In this document: piece by piece, positions 56,218 through 64,000 of the stretch | Numbering within the stretch: position 1 is the first letter of the stretch | Layout of the letters: each line of letters opens with the position of its first letter | Assembly: GCF_003334765.1 (NCBI RefSeq) | Contig: NZ_QOWT01000013.1 | DNA from: Escherichia coli | Lineage (GTDB): Bacteria; Pseudomonadota; Gammaproteobacteria; Enterobacterales; Enterobacteriaceae | Strand: one strand, 5' to 3' | DNA: 64,000 nucleotides | Notes under the pieces: model-generated | The model's input: the letters and a program-made list of their open reading frames with translations, nothing else | The model's database searches: none | Told to the model about the DNA's origin: nothing | Made by a program: the position numbers and the translations under genes

Positions 56218-56367
56218 GATTATAAGCGTATATTATTGTTTGACATGCGCTTTTTTATTCTCCCTTCCAGACAGTATGCCACCGGGTATGCCATCTGAAA
56301 CCGGTTTATATAAGCCGCGATCACATCTTATCGGACTATTTCCGATCTTTGAGCATACCGGGCAAAG

Positions 56368-57213
56368 CTATACTGCCAGCATGCCAGGATAGTGTCTGGC
56401 AATAATATCATTAAGCCTGTCAACCAGTTCTGGTTTTCTGAACGTGATATGCGCGGAGCCCTTCTTAAAGTATCTGATGCTGAACATCTCATCTTCATAG
56501 CACGCTTTACCCTGAACAGACCGGATATGGTCATCCAGATGAATGATGATATTTTCCCGGTTGTCGGGGACTGGTTTGCCACTGAACAGATGCAGCATTC
56601 TTTCCAGGTCGGCAAGTCGGTCGGTCTGTTGTCCGCTGTTCAGATGAATCCCCCACCGGTCCCACCTCACCAGATTGTTGACGATAATTTTACTGCCAAA
56701 TTTACAGGGTGAGTTGGTTTTGTAATTCCAGCTCAGCACTCTGAAGACGTTGATCACTCCTCGCTCAAACACGTCATCCTTATTCTGGTGCAGTTGCTCA
56801 AATGTGCTCCAAATGTTCGCTTCACTGATTTCCGGAAAGTTATCGTACTCCAGTGAGCGGTACCATGTATCACGGGCCTGCGCATCCATTAATGACAGCA
56901 TCCCGGAACGTTGCATCAGGTCACGCCAGATTTCGCGATCGAGATTGCGGGTGATGGCTTTCATTGCGGTTTCCGGTTTCTCCATGAGCCAGCAGCCGCA
57001 GCGAAAATCCTGTTTCATGGCCCAGTCCCGGGCGGTTTTACCGCCAATGCTTTCCGTCAGTACCGAGATTTCAGCCAGTTGCCGGATAAGTGTGTCGATT
57101 TGCAGCAGCGCACTCTTTCGTACAGCCAGAATGTGGCGGATACTGGTTGAGCAGATAACGTCCGTATGTCCGTTGACCAGTTCCGGGCGGGAGATTGTGA
57201 TATCTGACATCAT
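56368..57213 (-). CDS. Island-encoded hypothetical protein, resembling DUF4942-family proteins found at the toxin-proximal end of CP4-type islands
   Basis: 281-aa ORF with protein-like composition. Family assignment is from memory of annotations, not from a search. Confidence 0.65.
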   Translation of the reverse strand: MMSDITISRPELVNGHTDVICSTSIRHILAVRKSALLQIDTLIRQLAEISVLTESIGGKTARDWAMKQDFRCGCWLMEKPETAMKAITRNLDREIWRDLMQRSGMLSLMDAQARDTWYRSLEYDNFPEISEANIWSTFEQLHQNKDDVFERGVINVFRVLSWNYKTNSPCKFGSKIIVNNLVRWDRWGIHLNSGQQTDRLADLERMLHLFSGKPVPDNRENIIIHLDDHIRSVQGKACYEDEMFSIRYFKKGSAHITFRKPELVDRLNDIIARHYPGMLAV

Positions 57214-57294
57214 CGTTTTTCCTTTTGGTTTATAAACGAAAACGCCAGCCGTATTCAGGCTGGCGTCAGTGGAATGAAGTCTGGTGAGTAAGAC

Positions 57295-57492
57295 TCACCT
57301 GTTCTGTTGCAGAAGCTGCTGTTGGCGCAGGGTACGGATATCTTCCCTGGCCTGTTCAATGCAGGGCAGCAGTGCTGCTGAATCCGTTTTATCCTCATCG
57401 GTGTCGAAGATAATCCCTGATTCGCAGTCAATATTGTCCTGCATCCACGCAATCAGAATATCCAGCGCCGTTTCTGTGGTTAATGATTTCAT
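57295..57492 (-). CDS. YeeW-like small protein
   Basis: 65-aa segment MKSLTTETALDILIAWMQDNIDCESGIIFDTDEDKTDSAALLPCIEQAREDIRTLRQQQLLQQNR inside ORF 57295..57723; matches the YeeW-type protein found downstream of CbtA-type toxins. Confidence 0.7.
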   Translation of the reverse strand: MKSLTTETALDILIAWMQDNIDCESGIIFDTDEDKTDSAALLPCIEQAREDIRTLRQQQLLQQNR

Positions 57493-57508
57493 GTTGTGAA
57501 TTTCCGGG

Positions 57509-57760
57509 TTACCAGTCGAAAGTGGGGAACCCCGGCAGACATTCTGCGCCGGCGTCCAGATGAATGAGACTGACGCCATAACGCCGGGTGAGAGTGACGA
57601 CCAGACGACGGAACGTTCTTGACAGGCCCAGGCGTTTAAGCCGCAGAACCGGGTACGACCATGCATCGGTACGTAACAGATACCAGTCGCGGGCTTTTTC
57701 CCGTACGGTGGAGGATAGCTCATGCAGTGTATACACGGTGGTGGTGATAATTCTGCTCAT
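57509..57760 (-). CDS. 83-aa hypothetical protein in the slot where CP4 islands carry the CbeA/CbtA-type antitoxin-toxin pair; weak resemblance to the CbtA/YkfI toxin C-terminus
   Basis: ATG start, TAA stop; contains YLLRTD (compare YALVRTD / YELVRID in CbtA-family toxins); too short for either partner. Confidence 0.4.
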   Translation of the reverse strand: MSRIITTTVYTLHELSSTVREKARDWYLLRTDAWSYPVLRLKRLGLSRTFRRLVVTLTRRYGVSLIHLDAGAECLPGFPTFDW

Positions 57761-57778
57761 CTGAATGCCCTTACTGAC

Positions 57779-58000
57779 TCAGTTCAGGGTGACGTTCATC
57801 AGCCGGACATACGGGCCAAAACTGTCCTTACGGCGTTCAGCAAACACGGCCAGCACACCGGGAATATCCTGCACTTCACGACCGGTATACGTCTCAGCAC
57901 TGCCGTGCCAGCGGTACTTACCGGTGCAGAACGGAAATAGACGGGGTGCAGGATGCTGTTGGTGAATACGCATGGCTTCACCACGGGTGATAATTTTCAT
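57779..58000 (-). CDS. DUF987-family protein (YeeT/YpjJ-like)
   Basis: 73-aa ORF MKIITRGEAMRIHQQHPAPRLFPFCTGKYRWHGSAETYTGREVQDIPGVLAVFAERRKDSFGPYVRLMNVTLN. Confidence 0.85.
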   Translation of the reverse strand: MKIITRGEAMRIHQQHPAPRLFPFCTGKYRWHGSAETYTGREVQDIPGVLAVFAERRKDSFGPYVRLMNVTLN

Positions 58001-62093: not shown

Positions 62094-62227
62094 GATAACT
62101 CTCCTTATGGCATTAATAAATGCGTCAATCTTAAATCTCACCCAGGTAATATATATCTGAAAATATTTTCAATAACACCAGCCAGGAAAAACACCACCAC
62201 AGGCGGTGGCGTTTCTCCGGAGCGTCT

Positions 62228-62722
62228 TTATTTAATCCGGGCCATCGCGTTTCTCAGTGCCGAATCTGCACCTTCAGTTATCTCCAAGCTTTTCTGCAAT
62301 ACCGCCTCTGACCGGGTCAGTGCCTGACGCGCCGCCAGTGGTTTCCGGATATGCTCCATCGTCAGCATCGTGTCCTCATAGCCCTGCTGACGCCAGGCGT
62401 CGGTATGTGCCGATGTAAAACTGAGCAGACCGCCACTTTTGCCTTCGTCCCCTGTTTCTTTCAGCCTTTTCCGGGGACGGATCTCAAGGATCGTGGTGTC
62501 CGGAAAAGCCCGGCGATCCCATAAAGAACCGTCACTCAGATGCGTCACAATCACCATATTGCATCCGGCATCAACCAGAGGCGTTACAGGGGTATTTCCC
62601 TGCCTGTTTCGCCATCCGCCCATACCACCATCACCATACATTGTCCCCTGAACCTCACGGGGACGGAACAACAGGGGCACCCGTTGCAATCCCGCCTTCA
62701 TGTACCCACTGCTTACCGCCGT
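62228..62722 (-). pseudogene. 3' remnant of a patatin-like phospholipase gene (catalytic-Asp DGG region and C-terminus only)
   Basis: ORF 62228..62701, open upstream to a stop at 62723-62725; contains ...YGDGGMGGWRNRQGNTPVTPLVDAGCNMVIVTHL..., resembling the patatin Asp box (DGG...NxP...GAD.V.V); the GxSxG serine region is absent. Confidence 0.5.
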
Positions 62723-63176
62723 TCAGAGTGGTATTCACTGCCTGCCCCTGAAGGCTCTGTCCGCCTCCGGCACTGATAACCGTGTCTGAAACGCTTCCTC
62801 CGGCATTCACTCTCTGAAGACCACCACCGGTGACAGTAGTGTTGTTGGCGATACCGCCATTTTGTATCCATTGCCCGCCGGTATTGGCCTCGTTATCCGG
62901 CCCATACTCCAGACCGCTACTGATGGTCATTCCGTTGGCCGTACCGAGAACAATCTGGTTGTCATGATTTGTCAGTGTTCCGCCGCTCACGGTTTCTCCC
63001 GCCTGTACGACCGTGTCAGCAGCCACTACCGGGACTGATGTGACAGCAGCAAGAGACAGCGCAATCGCCACACCGGCGCGTTTTCCCCGTGAGCGGGCCA
63101 GTTCGGAGGCCACCACCAGGGTACCCGTAATGTGATTCCATACCAGCCTGTAGCTGGTGTTCAGATGTCGTTTCAT
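62655..63176 (-). pseudogene. flu: Truncated antigen 43 (Flu) autotransporter gene: signal peptide plus about 165 N-terminal codons, then premature stop
   Basis: MKRHLNTSYRLVWNHITGTLVVASELARSRGKRAGVAIALSLAAVTS... matches the Ag43 N-terminus through ...NGGKQWVHEGGIATG, then diverges (APVVPSP-stop). Full Ag43 is about 1040 aa. Confidence 0.85.
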
Positions 63177-63384
63177 CAGCTTTTCCTTACAGAGGGTGAA
63201 TAAAAAAGCCGGTACCCACAAATGTGGATACCGGCAGGTACAAAACAGCATGGTCAGATAAAGTGGTTTTTCCCGGGCATAAATGCTTCCCCTCTCTCAT
63301 CCGCCAGAGAAGTATCAGTCCGTTGTGTGCAATTCCGTTCTGCATGATGAAGAGATTCAGCTGCCTTTTCGCAGACCATTAACC

Positions 63385-63440
63385 ACTATAAACGATCGAT
63401 AGTAACGATCGATACCTGTTTTATCGATCGTTTTATTCTA
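63385..63440 (-). promoter_or_regulatory. flu (agn43) phase-variation switch: three Dam GATC sites in the OxyR-binding region
   Basis: GATC at 63394-63397, 63407-63410 and 63426-63429 within AAACGATCGATAGTAACGATCGATACCTGTTTTATCGATCG, about 220-250 bp upstream of the flu start; this is the known agn43 Dam/OxyR architecture. Confidence 0.8.
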
Positions 63441-63547
63441 TTGATTGCAAGGCGGTCACGCAAGAGAAACAGGAGGAGCATGAGATGTTTGTGTCATGTT
63501 TTCAGTTGGTTAACGCAATGTAATCAGGCATTTTCCAGGCAGACTGT

Positions 63548-64000
63548 TCAGAAGAAAATCCAGTTCCATACAGCGCGGGCAACAGAGACCACCGTGTCAC
63601 GGACGGCACGCAGAACCGTACGGGCAACAGAGGCAACACAGACGCTCTCCGCCGTGTCAAATATCCGGTCCACCGCACCGGTAAACTGTTCACGGGCCTG
63701 AGCGCGGACAGATTCCGTGCGCAGCTCGTCCTGCAGGCGGGTCATCAGGGGACTGGCGGCATGGTCGGGAAGTGCTGTCATTAGCGCACTGACCAGCGTA
63801 TCCAGTTCCCAGCCGGTGCGGGCCGATACGGCAACAACCGGATGTACGGGCCGGAACAGACGGAATACCGCCTCCGTTTTCTCCCGAATGTTCTGTGCCT
63901 GTGCGGGAGAAGGCTGAATGCCGGCCATATCCCATTCATGGCAGGGCTCCGTTTTGTCGGCCTGCGTCACCACAAACAGCACCTGCTGATGTCCCCGGTG
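63548..64000 (-). CDS. YeeP/YfjP/YkfA-like GTPase, C-terminal part; N-terminus beyond window end
   Basis: Minus-strand ORF open to the window end (listed from an internal Met at 63982); position upstream of flu matches CP4-44 yeeP. Family call is from memory. Confidence 0.5.
   Translation of the reverse strand, partial: HRGHQQVLFVVTQADKTEPCHEWDMAGIQPSPAQAQNIREKTEAVFRLFRPVHPVVAVSARTGWELDTLVSALMTALPDHAASPLMTRLQDELRTESVRAQAREQFTGAVDRIFDTAESVCVASVARTVLRAVRDTVVSVARAVWNWIFF

Follow-up and report, generated by a model that had tools for sequence, protein, structure and literature searches.

The last part of the Escherichia coli sequence analyzed here (positions 56218–64000 of a 64,000-nucleotide stretch of contig NZ_QOWT01000013.1, hereafter the window) is very probably the end, distal to the integrase, of an integrative island belonging to the serW/serX family, which includes OI-43, OI-48, SpLE1, the tellurite-resistance/adherence island and the SRL PAI. 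The junction with the tRNA-Ser gene serW, the gene content, two deletions within the visible module and a presence/absence polymorphism at the site among E. coli strains are all observed directly. Because the kind of element, its insertion site and its mechanism have all been published, the finding is a known one, and the island is an ordinary member of its family.

The position of the junction follows from comparison with K-12. Positions 930000–979900 of K-12 MG1655 align with window positions 2201–52101 in a single gapless block at 99.974% identity, and the K-12 segment from serW to cydD matches window positions 51101–56217 at 99.96%, with the alignment ending precisely at 56217. An earlier note, made from the sequence alone, had described core synteny as intact through infA and the tRNA-Ser gene and had placed an island at the 3' end of that gene, in positions 56218–64000. 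The synteny is as described, at 99.96–99.97% identity to K-12 up to 56217, and the start of the island is exact because K-12 identity stops at the last base of serW; the end proposed in the note is, by comparison, the end of the contig and not a boundary of the island. In a four-way alignment, K-12 and the window are the same through the final 14 nucleotides of serW, CCCCCTCACCGCCA, and unrelated beyond them, and it is beyond them that the islands of other strains are ∼99% identical to the window. The break thus falls at the last serW base, where the 14-bp core known from OI-43, OI-48 and the SRL PAI ends. The arrangement is also absent from K-12, as the note had it: there, a spacer of 343 bp separates the 3' end of serW from clpA. 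The core CCCCCTCACCGCCA occurs once in the window, and a search across the window for a second 14-bp att core found none; likewise, K-12 macA–clpA (including clpA), cspD and the integrase (searched by tblastn) have no match anywhere in the 64-kb window. With the contig ending at 64000, neither the far boundary nor the integrase nor clpA is visible; this position is both the end of the window and the end of draft contig QOWT01000013.1 (GCA_003334765.1), broken off within a multi-copy yeeP-type GTPase gene. An exact-protein search with the DUF932 variant of the window retrieved this contig alone (131,878 bp), and its final 14,631 bp match window positions 49370–64000 at 100% identity. Any island cargo, the integrase and clpA would lie on other contigs, past position 64000.

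The attachment core ties the junction to a well-described family. Perfect 14-bp repeats, TGGCGGTGAGGGGG, bound OI-43 (at serW) and OI-48 (at serX) in EDL933, SpLE1 in Sakai and also the Shigella SRL PAI, and the P4-family integrase of OI-43 and OI-48 is ∼99% identical to that of the SRL PAI (PMC3064760). The integrase family uses both serW and serX, and islands at these sites excise site-specifically at a measurable frequency (PMC3064760; PMC7545054), which for OI-43 is about 1e-3 (PMC3064760). The window core CCCCCTCACCGCCA is the same element as the direct repeat TGGCGGTGAGGGGG published for OI-43, OI-48 and the SRL PAI (PMC3064760). The far boundary and direct repeat that the earlier note had proposed to locate are present in relatives, the window itself holding no second repeat. 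In PRO_A-1420, a serW island extends for ∼90.5 kb up to a tyrosine integrase gene beside clpA, and TGGCGGTGAGGGGG, the reverse complement of the last 14 nucleotides of serW, stands just before that gene; in AF58, a 48.5-kb serW island carries the 14-bp repeat at both ends and has its integrase adjoining clpA. The integrase genes beside clpA in these two strains read into the island, the relatives' integrases, encoded beside clpA or ycdU, have the domains Arm-DNA-bind_3, Phage_int_M and Phage_integrase, and the integrases of a serW island and a serX island are identical at 403/405 positions. A third strain, SW071611 (NZ_CM129855.1, 3398249–3492000), was dropped as a clean example of the far end in favor of these two: its serW island is a rearranged mosaic of >85 kb with a ter cluster, microcin H47 genes and iha, fused at its far end to yersiniabactin (HPI) genes, which a truncated integrase abuts in place of clpA, pointing to a large rearrangement.

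By analogy with these relatives, we infer that an integrase brought the island in and that its gene and the second repeat lie past the contig end. A P4-type tyrosine recombinase encoded at the far end of the island would have recombined the island attP with the 14-bp attB CCCCCTCACCGCCA at the 3' end of tRNA-Ser(GGA). The island would bring its own copy of the 14 bp, and serW would remain intact at the visible junction because the island supplies an identical 14-bp 3' end; the displaced copy would come to lie at the opposite end, beside the integrase and clpA. The end that abuts the tRNA gene is a CP4-type accessory module with its genes read towards it, and the island would also supply a terminator-like hairpin directly 3' of serW. 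Two simple deletions have decayed the module, with loss of CbtA/CbeA and truncation of Ag43.

Occupancy of the site varies across the species. Counts were taken over 5426 complete E. coli genomes: an empty, K-12-type serW site (clpA intergenic region) is found in 4440 (82%), the infA-serW-DUF4942 junction of the window in 282 (5%) and a ghrA-serX-DUF4942 junction in 1177 (22%). The island end of the window (its first 150 bp and the DUF4942 gene) is 95–99.7% identical to these 282 serW and 1177 serX junctions. Several strains match the 24.9-kb core adjoining serW at 100.0%, and among them EH09-18-41 has an empty serW site and AF58 an occupied one. Taken together, K-12 and EH09-18-41 are empty and AF58 is occupied with cores that are 99.97–100% identical, and empty and occupied sites in near-identical cores are the pattern expected of a mobile island.

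All credible genes from 56218 onward are on the minus strand, and they are paralogs of K-12 CP4-44/CP4-6 genes with amino-acid identities of 44%–100% (Table 1), which bears out the earlier description of the region as CP4-type genes on one strand. Genes for the GTPase, Ag43 (as a 173-residue fragment only), DUF932, antirestriction, RadC and DUF987 proteins follow one another in the order of a CP4-type module. The Ag43/Cah fragment, which comprises the signal peptide and the first repeats, is non-functional; the reading frame of the GTPase gene stays open to the end of the window; and Pfam Antirestrict is annotated on the identical antirestriction protein in contigs that carry the same module (L015–L021, see below). 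A PADLOC scan of ten island open reading frames gave no defense-system match. Directly 3' of serW, a predicted hairpin at 56224–56252, followed by a T-run (to 56256), has a folding energy of −10.3 kcal/mol (z = −3.76), and none of 200 shuffled sequences was equally stable; it escaped a simple terminator scan, whose 8-nucleotide loop limit its 13-nucleotide loop exceeds. This island-borne, terminator-like hairpin stands in place of the native serW terminator of K-12.

Table 1. Features of the core flank, the junction and the island in the window
Feature	Positions	Strand	Basis or remark
cydD	51139–52905	+	NCBIfam equivalog cut-off passed
cydC	52906–54627	+	NCBIfam equivalog cut-off passed
aat	54669–55373	+	NCBIfam equivalog cut-off passed
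infA	55658–55876	+	NCBIfam equivalog cut-off passed
serW, tRNA-Ser(GGA), intact	56130–56217	+	ARAGORN, Rfam RF00005; identical to K-12 serW; sole tRNA gene in window
attL core CCCCCTCACCGCCA	56204–56217	+	Final 14 nt of serW
Non-coding island end (attL arm)	56218–56367		∼99% identical to other serW/serX islands
DUF4942 protein, 280 aa	56368–57210	−	Pfam PF13708, E = 2.5e-68; RefSeq annotation of homologs
DUF957 protein, 65 aa	57255–57452	−	99% nucleotide identity to DUF957 gene of LSN03-016011/A island
Fusion remnant across deletion scar 1, 83 aa	57509–57760	−	BLAST block structure
DUF987 protein (YeeT-like), 73 aa	57779–58000	−	94.5% aa identity to K-12 YeeT; phrog_14887
RadC-like JAB-domain protein (YeeS-like), 158 aa	58063–58539	−	TIGR00608, 149 bits, above cut-off; 100% to K-12 YeeS over 150 aa
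Antirestriction protein (YafX-like), 157 aa	58555–59028	−	phrog_10132 anti-restriction, E = 9e-63
DUF932 protein (YafZ-like), 272 aa	59370–60188	−	phrog_12094, E = 4e-131; 73.8% to K-12 YafZ
DUF905 protein (YkfF-like), 72 aa	60306–60524	−	56.7% to K-12 YkfF; Pfam DUF905 on identical gene in L017, L021
Secreted hypothetical protein, 160 aa	60626–61108	−	Weakly Ivy-like
Hypothetical protein, 180 aa, signal-peptide-like N-terminus	61551–62093	−	Without family assignment
Patatin-like phospholipase, C-terminal fragment	62228–62701	−	BLAST blocks against LSN03-016011/A island; ends at deletion scar 2
Ag43/Cah autotransporter, N-terminal fragment, 173 aa	62655–63176	−	NF033177 model positions 1–167 of 948; 80% to K-12 Flu
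IS102/IsrC-type small RNA region	63195–63431	−	Rfam RF00124, 74.6 bits (gathering score 46)
YeeP/YkfA-type GTPase gene, C-terminal 150 codons	63548–64000	−	98.6% to K-12 YeeP; compared with intact 290-aa homolog

Two long plus-strand open reading frames (58075–59034 and 59328–60182) were rejected as antisense shadows, there being no annotated homologous locus with plus-strand genes at these places. The IsrC-family match lies upstream of the truncated Ag43 gene, and isrC of K-12 CP4-44 is likewise placed, between yeeP and flu. In the core region, unrelated to the island, Rfam identifies the enterobacterial small RNA STnc130 on the plus strand (41233–41367, 140 bits).

The decay of the module was traced against the serX island of LSN03-016011/A (NZ_CP035884.1), its closest relative among complete genomes. 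At 57681/57682, 1761 bp are gone, and with them most of the DUF5983 gene, the cbtA toxin gene, the yeeU/cbeA antitoxin gene and most of a yagB-like pseudogene; at 62679, 6373 bp are gone, a deletion that took the N-terminal part of the patatin gene, RdcB, a dynamin-family gene and Ag43 except for 173 codons. Microhomology at the two junctions is limited to 1–2 bp (2 bp at the first). None of the 5426 complete genomes has either junction as contiguous sequence, and an exact-protein look-up finds both in draft assemblies. In keeping with the first deletion, the CbtA/CbeA (YeeV/YeeU) type IV toxin-antitoxin pair is absent between the DUF987 and DUF957 genes, and K-12 cbeA and cbtA are unmatched by tblastn. 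What is visible in the window is, in short, a decayed accessory end of the island, with neither the toxin-antitoxin pair nor a functional Ag43.

A look-up with the Ag43 fragment shows that the doubly deleted module recurs in many draft assemblies, at 99.7–99.8% identity and gapless over 7878 bp. Among six such copies, on contigs from drafts and a metagenome (L015–L020), it is joined to one of two cargos, either a ter tellurite-resistance cluster or DarTG with a type I restriction-modification system, and these differing links show that modules recombine within the island family. A patch of 11 single-nucleotide polymorphisms in the DUF932 gene (59742–59874) sets the window apart from all six sibling copies, and the allele in this patch is 100% identical to DUF932 paralogs in many genomes. 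The pattern suggests that CP4-type copies underwent gene conversion or that paralogous reads collapsed in the draft left a consensus artifact.

Several observations weigh against an integrase-borne island at serW. In every other assembly with a visible flank (L015, L016, L017, L020 and three similar ones), the doubly deleted module is at serX and not at serW; the flank in the four named contigs is ghrA/ycdX/ycdY/ycdZ/csgG. The assembly of origin is a draft, the sequences of serW and serX coincide over 95 bp (the 88-bp gene and 7 upstream bases), and the source contig stops with no integrase, second direct repeat or clpA in view. Base composition, finally, gives the region as a whole no foreign signature: the island has a GC content of 50.7% and the core one of 51.1%. 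The GC profile by which the earlier note had hoped to set the island apart from the core therefore does not separate the two, and GC and third-codon-position GC were discarded as an island test, the overall difference being nil and only a cassette at 60201–62200 deviating.

A rival explanation is an assembly misjoin, in which the island truly resides at serX and the assembler, misled by the identical tRNA repeat, fused the infA flank of serW to the island flank of serX. That the window forms the last 64 kb of a draft contig broken within a multi-copy gene, that the near-identical, gapless module is found at serX in the four contigs just named and that two further sibling contigs (L018 and L019) end inside the tRNA gene would all fit such an error. 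We nevertheless judge it very unlikely: usual reads and large assembly k-mers are longer than a 95-bp repeat, the contig extends unbroken for 7.8 kb beyond the tRNA gene, two samples are reported with the source contig, and the same junction genuinely exists in 282 complete genomes, among them that of AF58, whose adjacent 24.9-kb core is 100.0% identical. Another explanation accepts the placement and replaces the mechanism. Homologous recombination, by transduction or conjugation of an already occupied serW segment or by exchange between serX and serW, would have delivered the island, which would now be an immobile remnant without a working integrase. The decayed state of the module (two deletions, the toxin-antitoxin pair lost, Ag43 truncated) is compatible with this, and the paralogous alleles of the DUF932 patch argue that CP4-type copies do recombine; the strain-by-strain differences in cargo (ter, or DarTG with type I restriction-modification) and the serW island of SW071611, with its rearranged, HPI-fused far end and truncated integrase, also speak for this explanation. 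Against it, the junction coincides exactly with the 14-bp core, which is what integration by an integrase would predict, the flanking core has no divergent tract up to the tRNA gene, and the integrase family is published as using both serW and serX (PMC3064760; PMC7545054), and we consider recombination of this kind very unlikely as the source of the island.

An ancestral segment lost from K-12, as opposed to an insertion, would explain why the overall GC content resembles that of the core. It is hard to reconcile with a serW site that is empty in 4440/5426 genomes across the species, with the duplicated tRNA 3' end and the integrase at occupied sites, with the presence of the same module at another locus, serX, and with near-identical cores that differ in serW occupancy; the direct repeats and the variable occupancy already contradict it, and we give it almost no credence. 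Insertion at serW of an island of the serW/serX family remains the reading that we favor.

The one compositionally distinct part of the island is the 2-kb cassette at 60201–62200, whose GC content of 41.8% is lower than in any 2-kb stretch of the core, where the minimum is 44.9%. It encodes two proteins, of 160 and 180 residues, with signal-peptide-like N-termini. For the 160-residue protein, listed as hypothetical in public records, several faint matches point the same way: Pfam Ivy (PF08816) matches weakly (E = 0.005), NCBIfam NF007443 matches with E = 8e-4 at 19 bits, far under its cut-off of 180, the sole four PDB matches are all Ivy structures, again weak (E = 0.19–0.35), and a CKAHAC motif aligns at the CKPHDC loop of Ivy. 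A single-sequence AlphaFold model (pLDDT 43.9) is too poor for a fold comparison. The 180-residue protein has no significant match in NCBIfam, PADLOC, Pfam, PDB or PHROGs. The cassette may encode an unannotated periplasmic lysozyme inhibitor, divergent but Ivy-like, together with a secreted partner, and the island, though decayed and without its toxin-antitoxin pair, may still move between the paralogous tRNA sites serW and serX, because the identical doubly deleted module is found at serX elsewhere and at serW here; we consider these two modestly novel readings unlikely. If the first is true, the cassette would be a small host-interaction cargo that databases now list as hypothetical.

The segment marks a K-12-like strain as a carrier of a well-described family of mobile islands, members of which elsewhere carry tellurite resistance, Iha, urease, antibiotic resistance or phage-defense cargo; any biologically interesting cargo in the present strain would be on another contig. 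It should be noted that the placement at serW, as opposed to serX, rests on a draft assembly, which matters if the site is to be used in typing.

Among known systems, K-12 itself offers a structural parallel in CP4-6 at thrW, in which a tRNA gene is likewise followed by toxin-antitoxin, DUF987, RadC, antirestriction, DUF905, DUF932 and GTPase genes read towards it, with the integrase (intF) at the end far from the tRNA gene. CP4-6 differs in its tRNA target, in having no annotated DUF4942 gene and in its integrase, intF being unrelated to the serW/serX integrase (21% local identity), and the serW site of K-12 is itself empty. The Shigella SRL PAI shares the 14-bp att core. It inserts at serX, and serW is strongly suspected to serve it as a second site (PMC7545054); its resistance genes and fec system set it apart from the 7.8 kb visible in the window, which contain neither. 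OI-43, OI-48, SpLE1 and the tellurite-resistance and adherence island share the 14-bp repeat, and OI-43 is in addition inserted between serW/infA and clpA; OI-43 and OI-48 also have a P4-family integrase on the clpA side and a CP4-type module on the tRNA side (PMC3064760). The window differs from OI-43, OI-48 and SpLE1 in the two deletions of its module and in a host core that is K-12-like and not O157, and two sibling contigs (L015 and L020) join its module to a ter cluster. The 45.6-kb serX island of LSN03-016011/A is, among complete genomes, closest to the segment: it is 98.6–99.1% identical and shares both the gene order and the low-GC cassette. It differs in its location at serX and in keeping cbtA/yeeU, the patatin, RdcB and dynamin genes and a full-length Ag43, and it carries DarTG and a type I restriction-modification system as cargo.

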